NCBI GenBank assembly: GCA_964606385.1 | Contig: CAZSFZ010000009.1 | Coordinates: forward strand, 5,762 to 69,761 | Reading direction: 5' to 3' | From: an uncultured bacterium | Lineage (GTDB): Bacteria > Omnitrophota > Omnitrophia > Omnitrophales > Aquincolibacteriaceae | Length of the DNA: 64,000 nt | Part shown: in pieces, positions 94 through 17,040 of the stretch | How positions within the stretch are numbered: the stretch's first letter is position 1 | How the letters are laid out: each line of letters opens with the position of its first letter | The notes under the pieces: model-generated | Seen by the model: only the letters and a program-made list of their open reading frames with translations | The model's database searches: none | What the model was told of the DNA's origin: nothing | Translations under genes and position numbers: made by a program

Positions 94-588
94 ATGTCAA
101 ATGACAAGTACAGATCCATCGTAAAACTCGACTTCCAGTACGCGCACAGATTTATGAATTATCCTGGAGAGGCAAGCTATCTTCATGGACATTCGGGGTT
201 ACTAACGATTGAAATTGAAGGGGAGTTAAATAAACATAATTATGCCCACCCAGTTAAAGAGGCGCAAAAATTAGCATGGGCAGTAGCCGACAACTTCATG
301 CATGCAACGATTTTTCAAGAAGGTGATCCCTTGCTTGATCTAGTTTTGCAAGGATATGAGAAAACAGGAATGAAGGGCACAACCAATAGATTTGGGACGC
401 CTGCAAAAGCTCTCAACCACGAGCTGGTAAAATCGTTTCCTGAAAGCAGGGTCGCTGTGAGCAAAGGCCCCTCTACTTGCGAATGGTTCTGCACGGTGTT
501 CTATGAACTATTGAAAGACAAGTTGAATATTAAAAAAGTAGAATTCCGTTCTTCTTCGTTGAACTGCGCATCAAGAGAGTTTAATTAA
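94..588 (+). CDS. 6-pyruvoyl-tetrahydropterin synthase (PTPS/QueD)-like protein; the gene is low-GC (~42%)
   Basis: HGH zinc-binding motif in 'ASYLHGHSG' and overall PTPS-like pattern, but the usual catalytic Cys is replaced. RBS aaaggag precedes the ATG. GC is far below the window average. Confidence 0.45.
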   Translation: MSNDKYRSIVKLDFQYAHRFMNYPGEASYLHGHSGLLTIEIEGELNKHNYAHPVKEAQKLAWAVADNFMHATIFQEGDPLLDLVLQGYEKTGMKGTTNRFGTPAKALNHELVKSFPESRVAVSKGPSTCEWFCTVFYELLKDKLNIKKVEFRSSSLNCASREFN

Positions 589-3502: not shown

Positions 3503-5956
3503 TTAAATGAAAAGATTGACGTTGCCGTTCTCCGCGCGGTCAAGGTACATCGCGACGCCGCCTGTTTCCACGCCGTCGATCAATTCCTCGAGCTTGATCC
3601 CCATGAGGTCCATGGACATCGAGCAGGCGACCAGCTTCGCGCCCGCGGCCTTCGCGCTCATGATCAATTCCGTGAGCGAGGCCACGTTCTTTTTCTTCAT
3701 GATGCCTTTGATCATCTGAAGGCCCATCCCGCCCATGTTCATCTTGGAAAGGGCGAGCTTCTCGGGGCCTTTCGGCATCATGAATCCAAACATGCGCTCG
3801 ACGAGATTTTTTTTCACCGGCCCGGATTTGGGTTTTCTGAGGACGTTTAGGCCCCAGAAGGTAAAGAACATCGTGACTTCGCTGCCCATGGCGAGGGCGC
3901 CGTTGGCGATCACAAAGGCGGCCATTACTTTGTCGAAATCGGAACTGAACACAACGATCGTTTTTTTCTTCGGGTCCCCGGAGGGGGCGTTCGCGGCCAT
4001 GGGATTCTCCTTTTTCCGGATCGTCGCCTGGTATTTCCCGGCGGCGGGTTTTAGTTCGATCAGTTCATTTCCCGTGCTTTGGCACCAGGAGCGGATATCG
4101 CTCACAAATCCCGGGTCCGTCGCGGAGATCCGGAGCGCCTCTCCGTCCCGGAGCTTTTCGATCTCGTTTTTGACGCGGAGGATCGGGCCGGGGCACTGCA
4201 GGCCGCACGCGTCGACTTCTTTGGAAAGCATCACAGGCCCTGACGCGTCCGCGGGGACGTTGTCGCGGGCGCCCGTATCGTCTTTCATTTCCGCGGACAC
4301 GGGTTTTTGGGGAAGAAGTCCGAGGCTGGCCTGGTAGGTGTCGTAGCCGCCGGTCAGGTTCCTGCATTTGAAACCGTTCTGGGACAGGATGCGGCAGGCG
4401 AGATAACCCCGCAGGCCCACTTTACAATACGCGAGATATTCTTTTTCCTTCGAGAGTTCGCCGAGCCGCCCCCGGAGTTCGTGAAGCGGGATATGGAGCG
4501 CCCCCGGGATCATCCCCGAAGTCACTTCCTCGGCGGTGCGTATGTCCAGCACCTGCTGATCTTTTTTCGGATGCGTGGCGTCCTCGGGATGGCAAACAAG
4601 GACATCCTTGCGGAGGACGTTCGCCGCGGCAAAACCGGCGTAATTAACAGGGTCCTTGGCGGAACCATAGGGAGGAGCATAGGAAAGCTCCATATCTTCC
4701 AGATTGTAGACCGTGAGCCCCGCGCGAAGGGCCGTCGCGATCACATCGATACGCTTGTCCACACCGTCCGCCCCAACCGCCTGCGCGCCCAGGATCTTGC
4801 CGCTTTGCGGGTCAAAGATAAGTTTGAGGTTGATGGGAGAAGCACCGGGGTAATAACTCGCGTGCGAAGCGGCATGTACATAGATCTTTTCGTAAGGGAT
4901 CTTGAGCCGTTTCAAAGTCTTTTCGCTTGCCCCGGTCATGCCGATCGAAAGGCCGAAGACCTTGCAGATCGCAGTGCCCTGTGTGTTCTTGTAAGACGAG
5001 AGCCTTCCGAAAATATTGTCCGCAGCGATACGGCCCTGCCGGTTCGCCGGCCCCGCGAGGGGGATCAGGGCTGATTCGGCCGTGACGAGATCCTTCACTT
5101 CGACCGCGTCGCCGACAGCAAAAATAGAGGGATCGCTGGTCCGCATATATTCATCCACCAGGATGCCGCCGCGCGTTCCGGTCTTAAGTCCGGCTTCTTT
5201 TGCGAGTTTGATTTCGGGTTTGACGCCGATCGCGAGGACCGCGAAACTGCAAGCCAGGGATTCTCCCGTGCTGAGTTCCGCTCGGAGCCCGGAATGTTCT
5301 TCACGGAATGCCTTTACGGAAGTTCCGAGGCGCAGGTCGACCCCGTGGAGCGTGAGTTCCTGATGAAGAGGTGCGGCCATTTCGGGGTCCGCGGGCCCCA
5401 TGACCTGTCTGGTCAGCTCGACCAAAGTGACGGGGACCTGTTTTTCTCTCAAGGCCTCCGCCATTTCAAGGCCGATATAACCGCCTCCCACGATCAGGAC
5501 CGGACCGTTTGCGCGTGAAGCGATCTCCTTTTTGATCGCGTCCATATCGGGAATACTGCGCAAGGTGAGGACCTTTTTGGAGTCTATGCCCGGGATCGGG
5601 GGGCGAACAGGTTCCGCGCCGGGGCTTAATATAAGGAAGTCGTAGGGTTCCTTGCGCTCGATCCCGGTCGTGAGTTCCCGCGCGACGACCTGTTTTTGAG
5701 CCGGATCGATCCGCAGGACTTCCGTCCGGACGCGGACGTCGATATTGAAATTCTTCCGCATGCTTTCCGGGCTTTGGACGATGAGACGTTCGCGGTCGGG
5801 GATTACGCCGCCGATGTGGTAGGGAAGTCCGCAATTCGCGAACGAGATATGCTCGCCGCGCTCAAACAGGATGATATCGGCTTTTTCCGAAAGACGGCGC
5901 GCGCGGGCCGCCGCCGAGGCCCCTCCGGCCACGCCTCCTACGATCAAAATACGCAT
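3503..5956 (-). CDS. CoA-disulfide/CoA-persulfide reductase fused to rhodanese, TusA and DsrE domains (CoAPR plus CstA-like module)
   Basis: N-terminal FAD/NAD(P) disulfide oxidoreductase ('MRILIVGGVAGGASAA', 'CGLPY'), then rhodanese 'AYCKVGLRGY', then TusA 'CGLQCPGPIL', then DsrE-like 'IVVFSSDFDKVMAAFVIANGA...TMFFTFWG'. 817 aa. Confidence 0.8.
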   Translation of the reverse strand: MRILIVGGVAGGASAAARARRLSEKADIILFERGEHISFANCGLPYHIGGVIPDRERLIVQSPESMRKNFNIDVRVRTEVLRIDPAQKQVVARELTTGIERKEPYDFLILSPGAEPVRPPIPGIDSKKVLTLRSIPDMDAIKKEIASRANGPVLIVGGGYIGLEMAEALREKQVPVTLVELTRQVMGPADPEMAAPLHQELTLHGVDLRLGTSVKAFREEHSGLRAELSTGESLACSFAVLAIGVKPEIKLAKEAGLKTGTRGGILVDEYMRTSDPSIFAVGDAVEVKDLVTAESALIPLAGPANRQGRIAADNIFGRLSSYKNTQGTAICKVFGLSIGMTGASEKTLKRLKIPYEKIYVHAASHASYYPGASPINLKLIFDPQSGKILGAQAVGADGVDKRIDVIATALRAGLTVYNLEDMELSYAPPYGSAKDPVNYAGFAAANVLRKDVLVCHPEDATHPKKDQQVLDIRTAEEVTSGMIPGALHIPLHELRGRLGELSKEKEYLAYCKVGLRGYLACRILSQNGFKCRNLTGGYDTYQASLGLLPQKPVSAEMKDDTGARDNVPADASGPVMLSKEVDACGLQCPGPILRVKNEIEKLRDGEALRISATDPGFVSDIRSWCQSTGNELIELKPAAGKYQATIRKKENPMAANAPSGDPKKKTIVVFSSDFDKVMAAFVIANGALAMGSEVTMFFTFWGLNVLRKPKSGPVKKNLVERMFGFMMPKGPEKLALSKMNMGGMGLQMIKGIMKKKNVASLTELIMSAKAAGAKLVACSMSMDLMGIKLEELIDGVETGGVAMYLDRAENGNVNLFI

Positions 5957-12895: not shown

Positions 12896-13017
12896 GATCT
12901 CTGGGCGGTAGACAAGGACGGCCCCAATTTCAGGAAATCTGAAATTAATAGGTATTGGGACCGTTTGACACCCTCTTCACATTCGGGCAGAATGTCCCCT
13001 CAACCCAGAGGGATTTC

Positions 13018-13302
13018 ATGGAATTCAATATTGATAAGGTCGCGGAACTTGCGCGGCTGAACCTCAAGACAGAAGAAAAATCCAAACTCGGGAAAGACCT
13101 CGGAGCGATCCTCGATTACGTCAAGAAGCTCGAGAAACTGGAAACCCGGAATATCGAGCCGACGAGCCATGTCCTGGACCTCGAGAACGTCTACCGGAAA
13201 GACGAGGTCAAACCCTCGGATGCAGCCGACAAGGCCCTGGCGCACGCCCCGCACGCCGACGGCCGTTTCTTCAAAGTTCCCAAGATCGTGCAGAGGGACT
13301 GA
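13018..13302 (+). CDS. gatC: Glu-tRNA(Gln)/Asp-tRNA(Asn) amidotransferase subunit C
   Basis: 'MEFNIDKVAELARLNL...EEK' matches the GatC N-terminus. The ORF-track 5' extension is rejected. Confidence 0.8.
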   Translation: MEFNIDKVAELARLNLKTEEKSKLGKDLGAILDYVKKLEKLETRNIEPTSHVLDLENVYRKDEVKPSDAADKALAHAPHADGRFFKVPKIVQRD

Positions 13303-13303
13303 T

Positions 13304-14752
13304 ATGGCCGATCTTTGCTCCCTGACTCTCAAAGAAGCGATTGACGTCGCGAAAAAAGACGGTGCGCAGCCGATCCTGGATGCTTTCGCGAAGCGCGCCG
13401 AGGCGCTTAATCCGACGATAAACGCGTTCCTTCGTTTTGAGCAACCCATCCGACCCCGGGGGTCGGATAAATCCGACCCCGGGGGTCGGATGGGGGAGGG
13501 GGCGCTTCACGGGGTGCCCATTTCGATCAAGGATAATATCTGCATGGAAGGCAAGGAAGTGACATGCGCGTCGAAGATCCTGGCCAAGCACGTGCCGCCG
13601 TATAACGCGACGGTCATCACCAAATTGAAAGATGCGGGCGCGACGCTTTTCGGCCAGTGCAACATGGACGAATTCGCGTTCGGTTCCTCGTGCGAAACCT
13701 CGGCCTTCGGGCCGTGTAAAAATCCCTGGGACCTGACGCGCGTGCCCGGCGGCTCTTCCGGCGGCTCCGCGGCCTCGGTTGCGGCGGACATGACACTTGC
13801 CGCGCTCGGGAGCGATACCGGCGGCTCCATCCGTCAGCCCGCCGCGCTTTGCGGCGTGGTCGGCGTGAAACCCACTTACGGACGCGTGTCGCGCTACGGC
13901 CTTATCGCGTTCGGTTCGAGTTTTGACCAGATCGGCCCCATCACAAAGACCGTAGAAGACGCGGCGATCCTGATGAATGTGCTGAGCGGCCATGACCCGA
14001 AAGATTCTACCTCCGCGCCGCAGAATGTCCCTGATTTCACGCAAGCGCTCAAGCGGGACGTCAAAGGCCTGAAGATCGGTCTGCCGAAGGAATATTTTAT
14101 CGAAGGCATCGACCCCGAGATCGAAAAAAGCGTGCGCGCGGCAGCGGACCTTTATAGGAAACTCGGCGCGGAGATCAAGACGATCTCTCTGCCTCATACC
14201 GAATACTCCGTCGCGGTCTACTATATTGTCGCCGTCGCGGAGGCAAGCTCGAACCTCGGCCGGTTCGACGGCGTAGAGTACGGCCTGCGTGTACCCACCA
14301 AAGATCTTCGCGAGATGTATTTTGAGACACGCGACCAGGGGTTCGGACAGGAGGCCAAGCGCCGCATCCTGCTCGGCACTTTTGTGCTTTCCGCGGGTTA
14401 TTATGAAGCTTACTACTTAAAGGGGCAGAAGGTCCGCACGCTCATCCGCCAGGATTTCGAGAAGGTGTTTAAAGAAGTGGATGTGATCCTTTCGCCGACC
14501 TCGCCTACACCAGCCTTCAAGATCGGCGAAAAGGCCGCGGACCCGATCGCCATGTACTTATCTGATATTTTTACAATCCCGGCGAACCTTGCAGGGATCC
14601 CCGCGATGTCCGTGCCGTGCGGTTTTACCTCAGGCGGTCTGCCCATCGGCATGCAGCTCATGGCCCGCCCGTTCGACGAGGCGACCATGCTCCGTGCTGC
14701 TTATGCGTTTGAACAAGAGGCTGGAATCCACAAAAAGAAACCGGTTCTTTAG
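13304..14752 (+). CDS. gatA: Glu-tRNA(Gln) amidotransferase subunit A
   Basis: Amidase signature 'GGSSGGSAASVAA', 'HGVPISIKDNI'. ATG at 13304 is 1 nt after the gatC stop. Confidence 0.9.
   Translation: MADLCSLTLKEAIDVAKKDGAQPILDAFAKRAEALNPTINAFLRFEQPIRPRGSDKSDPGGRMGEGALHGVPISIKDNICMEGKEVTCASKILAKHVPPYNATVITKLKDAGATLFGQCNMDEFAFGSSCETSAFGPCKNPWDLTRVPGGSSGGSAASVAADMTLAALGSDTGGSIRQPAALCGVVGVKPTYGRVSRYGLIAFGSSFDQIGPITKTVEDAAILMNVLSGHDPKDSTSAPQNVPDFTQALKRDVKGLKIGLPKEYFIEGIDPEIEKSVRAAADLYRKLGAEIKTISLPHTEYSVAVYYIVAVAEASSNLGRFDGVEYGLRVPTKDLREMYFETRDQGFGQEAKRRILLGTFVLSAGYYEAYYLKGQKVRTLIRQDFEKVFKEVDVILSPTSPTPAFKIGEKAADPIAMYLSDIFTIPANLAGIPAMSVPCGFTSGGLPIGMQLMARPFDEATMLRAAYAFEQEAGIHKKKPVL
13448..13491. 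repeat. Tandem copy of a 21-nt perfect palindrome inside the gatA coding region
   Basis: atccgaccccgggggtcggat-aa-atccgaccccgggggtcggat. It is read in-frame as 'IRPRGSDKSDPGGRM'. Confidence 0.6.
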
Positions 14753-14761
14753 GAGGTTGTT

Positions 14762-14992
14762 ATGGCGAAGACGAAGATGCCGTTCGTGATGGACATGCAG
14801 CCAGGGGAATATTACTGGTGTTCCTGCGGGGAATCCGCGAAGCAGCCGTTCTGCGACGGGTCGCATAAGACGAAGGCGCCCGGCATGCAGCCCATGAAGA
14901 CAGTGATCGATGCGTCGAAAAAGATCGCGTGGTGCGGCTGCAAAGCTTCGGGGAAGAAACCCTTTTGCGACGGGACGCATACAAAACTTTAA
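14762..14992 (+). CDS. CDGSH iron-sulfur domain protein (two CDGSH motifs)
   Basis: 'CSCGESAKQPFCDGSH' and 'CGCKASGKKPFCDGTH'. Confidence 0.8.
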   Translation: MAKTKMPFVMDMQPGEYYWCSCGESAKQPFCDGSHKTKAPGMQPMKTVIDASKKIAWCGCKASGKKPFCDGTHTKL

Positions 14993-15034
14993 ATGGTGAC
15001 GGTTATCTGTTTTTTATAGTACAGCAATAGGAGC

Positions 15035-15544
15035 ATGCGAGTGAGCCGATTTACGTCGAAAAGCATAAGGGCTCTTTTTGAAGCAAATAAAAAACAAGCT
15101 CAAAGGAAACTGAGGAGCCTTAAAGTTTGCTGCACCGACGAGCCCGATTTCGCGGGGCTCAATGGGTGGGTATTCGAACAGACGATTCAGTATTGTATTC
15201 GACAAGAACTCTTGTCCCAAGGGGTTCGTCCCAGGATTGAAGAGCAGTTTAACTTGGGCGGTCGAGCAAGAGCAGATTTGAAGATTGGTGGAAACATCGC
15301 TATCGAGATCAAAGTGGCTGGTCTTTTCAGCGAAGACGATATCTTAAAATATAAAAAATACCGTCAAATGGCAGAGCAACAAGGCTTTCGCTATCTGTTT
15401 TTGTCATGGGAGGAAAGTCATCTTCCCTTCCGGAAGGGGATTGCACGAGTTTTGGATGCAGCCAATGTCTTTTATCTTGATCGTTCACAAGACTGGAAAA
15501 GATTCATCAATGGATTGGTTGAGTTTCTCAAGAAAACCGCGTAG
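15035..15544 (+). CDS. Hypothetical protein with a PD-(D/E)xK-like nuclease motif; low-GC (~45%) insertion between gatA and gatB
   Basis: 'RADLKIGGNIAIEIKV' fits the D...(E/Q)xK core. GC is well below the neighbours. No homologous context in the conserved gatCAB operon. Confidence 0.4.
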   Translation: MRVSRFTSKSIRALFEANKKQAQRKLRSLKVCCTDEPDFAGLNGWVFEQTIQYCIRQELLSQGVRPRIEEQFNLGGRARADLKIGGNIAIEIKVAGLFSEDDILKYKKYRQMAEQQGFRYLFLSWEESHLPFRKGIARVLDAANVFYLDRSQDWKRFINGLVEFLKKTA

Positions 15545-15588
15545 AAATCGGATGATACCGTTCGGAGAAGGAATGAGAAAGAATAATT

Positions 15589-17040
15589 ATGAAATTTGAA
15601 CCAGTCATCGGACTAGAAGTCCACGTGCAATTAAAAACAAAGTCAAAACTGTTCTGCTCGTGCTCGACGGAATTTGGGGCGGAGGGGAATAGCCACACAT
15701 GTCCCGTGTGCCTCGGCTGGCCGGGGTCGCTTCCGGTGGTGAATGAGACGGCGCTGAAGCTCGGGATCAAGGCTGGGCTCGCGCTCAACTGTAAAGTGGC
15801 GGAGCGCCTCAAGTTCGACCGGAAGAATTATTTCTATCCGGACCTTCCCAAGGCTTATCAGATCTCCCAGTACGATATGCCGGTGAATGGGAAGGGGTTT
15901 GTTGATGTTGAAACGAAAAGCGGGGAACGTGGAACGGGGAACGTGGAACGAAAGCGAATCGGGATCACGCGCGCACATTTGGAAGAAGATGCGGGAAAAC
16001 TTCTGCATGAAGGGATCTCGGACGGAAGCTTGGTCGATTACAACCGTGGCGGCGTGCCGCTCCTTGAGATCGTTTCTGAACCGGATATCCGCTCGCCCCA
16101 GGAAGCGTACGATTACCTTAGCGCGCTCAAAGCGATCTTGCAATACGTAGAAGTGAGCGACTGTGATATGGAAAAGGGAAGCCTCCGCTGCGACGCGAAC
16201 GTATCCGTACGGCCGGTCGGTCAGGAGAAATTCGGGACGAAAGTTGAGATCAAGAACCTGAACTCGTTCAAGATGGTGCAGAAAGCCATTCAGTACGAGA
16301 TCGAACGCCAGACGCGGGCGCTCGAGGACGGTGAAACGATCGTTCAGGAAACGCGGCTCTGGAATGACGCCAAGGGCACGACGTTCTCCATGCGTTCCAA
16401 AGAGGAAGCCCACGATTACCGTTATTTTCCGGACCCGGACCTTGTAGCGTTCACGCTTTCCAGAGAACTCGTGGACGGGATCAGGAAGACCCTGCCGGAA
16501 TTGCCGCTCGAGCGCGCGAAGCGGTTCATGAAAGATTACGGCCTTTCCGAATACGACGCTTATGTGCTGGTGCAGGAAAAGAAACTCGCGGAATATTTCG
16601 AGTCCTGCGTGCGCGAGGGCGCCGCGGCAAAGCTCGCGAGCAACTGGATCCAGAATGAACTTCTCGCGTTATTAAATGAGAAGAATATCGCGATCGAAAC
16701 ATGCCTTGTTTCTCCCCATGCGCTGGCCGGGTTGATCCGTCTTGTCGAGCAGGGGACGGTGAGCGGCAAGACTGCCAAGGATGTGCTTCAGGAAATGGCG
16801 GCCACGGGCAAAGCGGCCGACGTGATCGTCAAAGAAAAAGGTCTGACGCAAGTTTCGGATACCGGTCTGATCGAGAAAACGGTTGAGAAAGCGATCGCGG
16901 CGAATCCCACGGCGGTCGCGGAATTCAAAGCTGGGAAACAAAAAGCCTTGGGTGCGCTTGTAGGTTTCGTCATGAAAGAGACCGGAGGCAAGGCGAATCC
17001 GAAGCTTGTGAATGAAATACTCATTCAAAAGCTCGGCTAA
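15589..17040 (+). CDS. gatB: Glu-tRNA(Gln)/Asp-tRNA(Asn) amidotransferase subunit B
   Basis: 'MKFEPVIGLEVHVQL', 'KRIGITRAHLEEDAGK'. Contains an in-frame heptamer-repeat insertion at 15922-15950. Confidence 0.9.
   Translation: MKFEPVIGLEVHVQLKTKSKLFCSCSTEFGAEGNSHTCPVCLGWPGSLPVVNETALKLGIKAGLALNCKVAERLKFDRKNYFYPDLPKAYQISQYDMPVNGKGFVDVETKSGERGTGNVERKRIGITRAHLEEDAGKLLHEGISDGSLVDYNRGGVPLLEIVSEPDIRSPQEAYDYLSALKAILQYVEVSDCDMEKGSLRCDANVSVRPVGQEKFGTKVEIKNLNSFKMVQKAIQYEIERQTRALEDGETIVQETRLWNDAKGTTFSMRSKEEAHDYRYFPDPDLVAFTLSRELVDGIRKTLPELPLERAKRFMKDYGLSEYDAYVLVQEKKLAEYFESCVREGAAAKLASNWIQNELLALLNEKNIAIETCLVSPHALAGLIRLVEQGTVSGKTAKDVLQEMAATGKAADVIVKEKGLTQVSDTGLIEKTVEKAIAANPTAVAEFKAGKQKALGALVGFVMKETGGKANPKLVNEILIQKLG
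15922..15950. repeat. GGAACG heptamer array (4 units) embedded in-frame in gatB
   Basis: ggggaacgtggaacggggaacgtggaacg, read as 'GERGTGNVER'. Its 15-mer ggggaacgtggaacg is identical to copy A at the RND 3' end. Confidence 0.65.

Follow-up and report, generated by a model that had tools for sequence, protein, structure and literature searches.

A rare stand-alone PD-(D/E)xK-family gene, a candidate defence nuclease, in the variable gatA–gatB junction of an uncultured Omnitrophota bacterium

The window analyzed here, a 64,000-nucleotide stretch of DNA from an uncultured Omnitrophota bacterium (GenBank assembly GCA_964606385.1, contig CAZSFZ010000009.1), contains a gatCAB operon in which two short genes separate gatA from gatB. 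On the + strand, the order is gatC, gatA, a gene for a CDGSH iron-sulfur protein, a 169-aa open reading frame (ORF169), gatB and tsaD, with short spacers between them. The gatA gene (13304..14752, +; Pfam Amidase, 3e-157) and the gatB gene (15589..17040, +; Pfam GatB_N, 1e-123, and GatB_Yqey, 5e-53) are the left and right conserved flanks of a variable junction. The gene order between them had been proposed in an earlier note on this DNA and was confirmed by Pfam matches and open reading frames. The CDGSH gene (14762..14992, +) encodes a protein of 76 aa with two CDGSH motifs. It matches zf-CDGSH (PF09360, 1.3e-20) in two stretches with 73.8 bits against a cut-off of 29.5, and two copies of CDG[ST]H are present in the translation. 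ORF169 (15035..15544, +), which an AlphaFold model and its homologs assign to the stand-alone PD-(D/E)xK-fold nuclease-family proteins, is the main subject of this work.

The true start of ORF169 is probably the GTG at 15041, giving a protein of 167 rather than 169 aa, because an AGGAG (15029-15033) is placed 7 nt upstream of this codon and protein P0001, from a contig that is 100% identical to the window DNA (L006), was called from it. The spacers of 42 nt upstream and 44 nt downstream of ORF169 hold no open reading frame, and an Rfam scan of the junction gave no match. A promoter- or terminator-like site was sought on the + strand from gatA to gatB and none was detected; co-transcription with the gatCAB operon is therefore the simplest reading and the most likely mode of expression of ORF169.

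The base composition of ORF169 differs from that of its surroundings. The 48 window ORFs of at least 100 aa have a mean GC content of 0.555 (standard deviation 0.034) and a mean GC at third codon positions (GC3) of 0.675, whereas ORF169 has a GC of 0.45 and a GC3 of 0.46, about 3 standard deviations below them. The low GC of about 45% described in the earlier note is thus real, but the background of about 60% given there is too high, as the GC of the window is 55.7%. Sliding-window GC falls to 0.40-0.46 over the gene, and the anomaly is confined to about 14993-15563. The earlier note had described a low-GC insertion made up of both the CDGSH gene and the ORF. Because the CDGSH gene has a native composition (GC 0.56, GC3 0.77), the low-GC insertion consists of ORF169 only.

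Comparison with relatives gave the same boundaries. The GatA protein shares 82-88% identity with its counterparts in many Candidatus Omnitrophota metagenome-assembled genomes (MAGs). The window proteins were mapped onto 80 gatA loci, each from a different species, and the gatA–gatB junction could be scored in 79 of them. ORF169 was found at this junction in none of the 79. Nucleotide homology to relatives extends to the end of gatA (about 14743), and in two of them (L012 and L022) it continues to the stop codon of the CDGSH gene (14990-14992). From 14992 to about 15564-15590 homology to all relatives is missing, and it returns some 25 nt upstream of gatB. On the basis of this homology break and the low GC, we delimit a window-specific single-gene cassette of about 571 bp (14993..15563, +), composed of a 42-nt leader with a ribosome-binding site, the nuclease-family ORF and a 3' tail of about 19 nt. 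No mobility gene is present in the cassette.

The CDGSH gene has a different history. It is found at the junction after gatA in L012 (70% amino acid identity) and before gatB in L022 (86%), with a nucleotide identity of 80-81% that is similar to that of the flanking gatA. Relatives with the same gene at normal composition in this place are what the earlier note had named beforehand as evidence against import, and for the CDGSH half of its proposal they exist. Its native composition and its shared place in these two genomes at gatA-like identity mark the CDGSH gene, at the level of sequence, as native to part of the clade rather than newly imported, and they rule it out as a part of the foreign insert. 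For ORF169, the proposed horizontal acquisition is supported by its foreign GC, its absence from this junction in the 79 relatives scored, the sharp breakpoints and the distance of the nearest homolog outside the same organism, which is 61% identical and lies in an unrelated context.

The AlphaFold2 model of the protein, built with a family alignment, reached a pLDDT of 92.5 and a pTM of 0.87. Its predicted topology is alpha-alpha-beta-beta-beta-alpha-beta-alpha-beta-alpha, with core elements at residues 40-61 (helix), 68-75, 78-84 and 88-93 (strands), 100-115 (helix) and 119-124 (strand). The first core helix (40-61) carries the acidic residue Glu48 in a GWVFE motif (codon 15176..15178, +), and the second and third strands (78-84 and 88-93) carry a catalytic-type motif, D81-x9-E91-x-K93 (15275..15313, +). 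Glu48, Asp81, Glu91 and Lys93 are invariant in 17 homologs. Over 91 diverse members, the residues conserved in at least 90% are Glu48 (within GWVFEQTI), Asp81, Glu91-x-Lys93, Gly96, Tyr120, Glu127 and Trp154. The restriction-endonuclease-fold core (D...IEIK) that had been suggested from the letters is borne out by the model, the structural matches and the conservation, which agree in placing D81...I-E91-I-K93 in the canonical position. Structure prediction, which the earlier note had put forward as a check, thus recovered a nuclease-like core and an active-site motif, and both the modeled core fold and the motif placement assign ORF169 to the PD-(D/E)xK superfamily.

A Foldseek search of the PDB ranked PspGI, BbvCI, BsaWI, the I-Bth0305I catalytic domain, DdmD, Can2 and AspBHI first or close to it, and the best-scoring viral models (BFVD) carry PD-(D/E)XK or endonuclease annotations. 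From the model the fold class is evident, and no close structural relative was recovered. The type II restriction endonucleases PspGI, BbvCI and BsaWI have the nuclease core fold in common with ORF169; however, identity to them is 10-12%, the root-mean-square deviation is large and ORF169 is about 100 residues shorter. It also differs from type II restriction-modification systems in being flanked by the CDGSH gene and gatB, with no methyltransferase here or conserved in the family.

Sequence searches define a family that is real but rare. ORF169 has no match in Pfam (E ≤ 1) or NCBIfam, and phmmer and profile searches against PDB sequences gave nothing meaningful; matches to calsequestrin in the PDB (E about 0.1) were dismissed as chance. 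A single weak match in PHROGs (phrog_5928, 2.4e-4) is to a family of unknown function. A word-indexed search of 5.8 billion proteins identified 18 relatives, none with a name, and a profile re-search of the same database added almost nothing and no names. When 1.84 billion cluster representatives were searched exhaustively with a profile, 181 were recovered. When 91 members were scanned individually against Pfam, 20 gave weak PDDEXK_3 matches (best 4e-5), and a few matched PDDEXK_4, DpnII, NERD, CoiA_nuc or others, including weak matches to NucS_C in two and a match to Phage_endo_I in one.

The nearest Pfam family is PDDEXK_3 (PF13366). Both have an alpha-beta-beta-beta-alpha-beta core with an acidic residue on the first helix, an aspartate on the second strand and ExK on the third. 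The ORF169 family differs in its own extra N-terminal helix and GWVFEQTI helix motif and forms a separate cluster with about 181 representatives at 50% identity. For PDDEXK_3 itself, the function is listed as 'Unknown' and multiple transfers between bacterial divisions and archaea have been described (PMC3424549). These sequence comparisons indicate that ORF169 represents a new family beside PDDEXK_3 and is not a member of it; the family is new to annotation libraries and lies within a well-known superfamily.

The place of insertion is itself variable. Junction classes were set by a close group with GatA at least 69% identical and a cargo cut-off of more than 200 bp; the close group comprises 22 species, 20 of which were scored, the other 2 having no gatB within 5-6 kb of gatA. 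In most genomes scored, gatA and gatB overlap or abut. Among the 20 close genomes, the junction measured at most 30 bp in 6, 31-200 bp in 4 and more than 200 bp (0.4-2.6 kb) in 10, and the corresponding numbers for 47 more distant genomes were 36, 5 and 6. Cargo of more than 200 bp is thus present in 10 of 20 close genomes versus 6 of 47 distant ones (Fisher p = 0.003). Because basal and outgroup lineages are mostly contiguous at gatA-gatB, contiguity is probably ancestral, and the hotspot behavior is probably a feature of this clade.

The cargo varies in nearly every species of the close clade, even between sisters, and is patchy on a GatA+GatB tree. By Pfam, it includes a MazE-like antitoxin with Doc (three genomes), RhuM/Fic with a protein carrying an AbiJ N-terminal domain (AbiJ_NTD4), T5orf172/MUG113, DUF2971, a Bro-N protein and a Rieske-FMN reductase fusion; also present are CDGSH, several membrane proteins and a protein of 77-80 aa that recurs. 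More distant genomes carry HigB with an HTH antitoxin, or RelB/RelE. The junction is a variable hotspot flanked by core genes, with a cargo mainly of toxin-antitoxin, abortive-infection-like and other conflict-type genes. The recurrent 77-80-aa protein (MTVLEIA(R/K)(V/I)YTDLVK(A/T)EREIPE...) occurs at the junction in three genomes (L013:3070-3312, L016:7660-7893 and L022:8632-8865) with 80-84% identity, and a Pfam scan of one copy, that of L013, gave no match. We also observed a GC-rich, hairpin-rich non-coding element at the junction in L017:7441-7640, L022:8320-8470 and L013:3290-3490, with hairpins such as ATTCATCGGC..GCCGATGAAT and TTGTCGTGCGGGCCCGACAA. This element has no Rfam match, is absent from the window and could be a terminator or an element resembling repetitive extragenic palindromes.

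Possible traces of an integration process are visible at some of these junctions. An exact repeat of the final ~29 nt of gatA (GAAACCGGCATCTACAAAAAGAAACCGAA) separates two cargo genes in L016 (7384-7412 and 8372-8400), and in L021 three further copies of this 3' part of gatA separate cargo modules (4157, 5036, 5194, 5276). The chance expectation for the motif is 0.2 matches over the whole set. A duplication in L014 involves the gatB start, whose first 36 nt stand on both sides of a ~75-nt insert (5158-5194 and 5272-5310). As a hypothesis from sequence, these repeats resemble attachment-site-like cassette boundaries such as tandem integration would leave, and integration could proceed through a site-specific recombinase acting in trans or through homology-anchored recombination. 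Integrase-less cis-mobilizable elements accrete in a comparable way at the 3' end of fda in Streptococcus thermophilus. The gatA 3' repeats between cargo in L016 and L021 and the gatB 5' duplication in L014 are similar to this accretion; however, ORF169 has no flanking repeats and no cognate integrase was identified for the junction.

Core-flanked defence hotspots are a known phenomenon, exemplified by cDHS1 and cDHS2 of Pseudomonas aeruginosa (Johnson et al. 2023, PMC10250203). These resemble the gatA–gatB junction in having fixed core flanks and a variable content that differs between close relatives, with much defence, toxin-antitoxin and unknown-function cargo. Compared with their medians of 6-26 kb, the gatA–gatB hotspot is tiny (0.1-2.6 kb), and it also differs in lying inside an essential operon and in carrying cargo without an integrase.

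To place ORF169 among its relatives, about 21 independent family loci from metagenomes and MAGs were inspected. The homolog has a lower GC than the host DNA in 21 of 23 independent loci, with hosts ranging from 34 to 64% GC. Since an all-against-all comparison of neighbors over about 25 loci found no gene family that recurs across independent loci, the family has no conserved partner such as a methyltransferase, an antitoxin or an immunity gene. A functional link of ORF169 to tRNA amidation was ruled out, as no other family member lies near gat genes.

Defence or toxin-antitoxin genes lie within a gene or two of the homolog in 9 of the ~21 loci, as a raw count. A family member stands between PDC-S06 and DRT2 (L093), and others adjoin PDC-S60 (L095), PDC-S02 (YhcG; L108), a TIR-like effector (L099), a HEPN gene (L117), an integrase together with a GmrSD_N/HEC-05 gene (L120), ParE (L100) and an MNT-HEPN pair (L140). 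The closest divergent homolog of ORF169 adjoins a DrmD/HKD-Snf2-like helicase and a type IIG restriction-modification enzyme (L001), the latter being the only DNA methyltransferase seen in the neighborhoods. Transposases or integrases were found in five loci, among them L010, L119, L124 and L139. These surroundings make the defence or toxin context raised in the earlier note a plausible one.

Other members sit within strings of conserved genes and share their orientation. In an archaeal case, a member and an MNT-HEPN pair lie between rrp4 and the two RNase PH genes (rrp41/rrp42) of the exosome operon (L140:262-846, L141:3188-3772), so that here too the family interrupts an essential operon whose genes are normally contiguous. 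In two related genomes, a member is placed between selB and a gene with AIRS/AIRS_C/CMD domains (L007:5733-6248, L142:2285-2800), and the L007 copy has a GC of 0.48 compared with 0.64-0.67 for the locus and flanking genes. Another member follows sucC. A separate observation concerns member P0005, which has a 119-aa GIY-YIG protein directly upstream in the same orientation (L143:195-554, an NCBI MAG contig).

Taken together, we favor, as somewhat more probable than its competitors combined, the reading that ORF169 is a horizontally acquired single-gene cassette encoding a rare, unannotated stand-alone PD-(D/E)xK nuclease, probably with a role in defence. Its nuclease activity, co-transcription and defence role are all inferred. 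In this clade, unrelated small cargo genes come and go at the junction between conserved core flanks, and the cassette lies downstream of the stop codon of the resident CDGSH gene and upstream of the region where ribosomes bind for gatB, with its own ribosome-binding site and co-oriented with the operon. Under this reading, the protein would most likely act as a metal-dependent DNA endonuclease using Glu48, Asp81, Glu91 and Lys93, and probably as a homodimer because it is a minimal single domain. It would probably serve as a restriction-like, single-gene defence nuclease in genetic conflict, with modified or structurally unusual phage DNA as possible targets.

Several observations weigh against this reading. 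An active nuclease that stands alone, with neither a methyltransferase nor an immunity partner, needs self-protection, and the sequence reveals none; the protein is also too small for a separate modification-reader domain. The Foldseek matches are all weak (the best, PspGI 3bm3, has an E value of 1.6e-3 and a TM score of 0.51), and no family in PADLOC-DB 2.0 matches ORF169 at E ≤ 1; genes next to its homologs do match families there. No relatives of ORF169 were found in IMG/VR, INPHARED phages or PLSDB plasmids. Guilt by association is only partial, because about 7 of the ~21 independent loci are plain housekeeping contexts. At the boundaries, no credible terminal direct or inverted repeats surround the ORF169 cassette, and the gatA 3' motif present at cassette edges in L016 and L021 has no copy around it.

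A broader and more speculative proposal, which we consider possible but doubtful, is that the family constitutes a new single-gene conflict nuclease (for example, anti-phage) of Bacteria and Archaea that travels as a bare one-gene cassette. The junction would then be an integrase-free cassette-exchange site in an essential operon, with the gatA 3' and gatB 5' repeats as attachment-like boundaries and cargo expressed by operon read-through. If ORF169 is an active stand-alone defence nuclease, it would be a very compact and unannotated single-gene addition to the defence repertoire, and such genes would be present in poorly studied phyla (Omnitrophota, groundwater archaea). In one clade, the essential and normally overlapping gatA/gatB pair is used as a landing site by toxin-antitoxin and defence cassettes. 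Placement in essential operons (gatCAB, the archaeal exosome and the selB region) would amount to a strategy, as expression is guaranteed and the gene is hard to lose. What is less ordinary here is the hotspot inside an essential operon and a family found inside conserved operons of both bacteria and archaea. Inspecting the conserved operons of close relatives also offers a practical route to new conflict genes in uncultured lineages.

The main rival to the defence reading is a free-standing selfish endonuclease of the homing type, which cuts the empty site in or near a conserved gene so that repair copies the gene into operon junctions. It accounts for a single gene with no mobility gene, placed precisely between genes and co-oriented in operons (gatA–gatB, the archaeal rrp4–rrp41 and selB–AIRS gene), and for a GC lower than that of the hosts. 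PD-(D/E)xK homing endonucleases do exist, and the catalytic domain of one structural match, I-Bth0305I, is noted above. The seg and mob genes of phage T4 are free-standing phage homing endonuclease genes, and ORF169 is similarly solitary, compositionally foreign and co-oriented between conserved genes. However, ORF169 belongs to another nuclease family, is not in viral collections and shows no evidence of recurrent homing to one site. Recurrent occupation of a single site by the family, which would be the hallmark of homing, was not seen in divergent lineages among the loci inspected, the selB pair being closely related; the other occupants of the gatA–gatB junction are unrelated genes; viral and phage homologs are lacking; and many members are in defence islands rather than in conserved operons. 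We regard homing as unlikely.

A decaying or domesticated remnant is slightly less likely still. On this account, ORF169 would be the orphan restriction endonuclease of a lost restriction-modification system or defence island, inactive or unselected here. No methyltransferase or other partner adjoins it, at least one family member (P0018) is frameshifted, and the type IIG enzyme next to the closest divergent homolog would fit such an origin. However, the reading frame of ORF169 is intact, every residue conserved in at least 90% of the family is kept and the ribosome-binding site is well placed. Furthermore, the family is solitary everywhere, so that a solitary gene is its normal state and not a product of decay.

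A structure-specific housekeeping or repair nuclease comparable to Hjc, RecU, Vsr or NucS, with branched or mismatched DNA as its substrate, appears improbable. Resolvases and Vsr are close in size to a minimal single-domain PD-(D/E)xK protein such as this one, the weak NucS_C and Phage_endo_I matches of individual members point in the same direction, one homolog adjoins a Y-family polymerase gene and several contexts are of the housekeeping kind. Vertical inheritance would be expected of a core repair function, but the family is very scarce and patchily distributed (about 181 clusters in 1.84 billion proteins), is missing from every close relative sampled and has a foreign composition in most hosts. 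Finally, it is most improbable that ORF169 is a toxin in a toxin-antitoxin or abortive-infection system with an unrecognized partner, be it a small RNA, a distant gene or an overlapping ORF. Toxin-antitoxin modules are frequent at the junction in relatives, and some homologs adjoin ParE or MNT-HEPN modules. However, unlike type II toxin-antitoxin systems, ORF169 has no adjacent antitoxin gene, is bordered by 42 and 44 nt that leave no room for a partner ORF, gave no Rfam match and belongs to a family with no conserved neighbor.

Three minor observations concern other genes of the window. The gatC gene (13018..13302, +; Pfam GatC, 5e-20) is taken from 13018, the start of a 94-aa call in L006, and its longest ORF begins at 12955. 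The longest tsaD ORF begins 29 nt inside the gatB end (17012-17040) and adds about 35 N-terminal residues that are unmatched in most relatives, in which tblastn matches begin at query residues 13-37; the real tsaD start probably lies further downstream. A second clearly low-GC ORF of the window (94-588, +; 164 aa, GC 0.42, GC3 0.44) shows motifs similar to 6-pyruvoyl-tetrahydropterin synthase/QueD (..YLHGHSG..), recognized by eye only.

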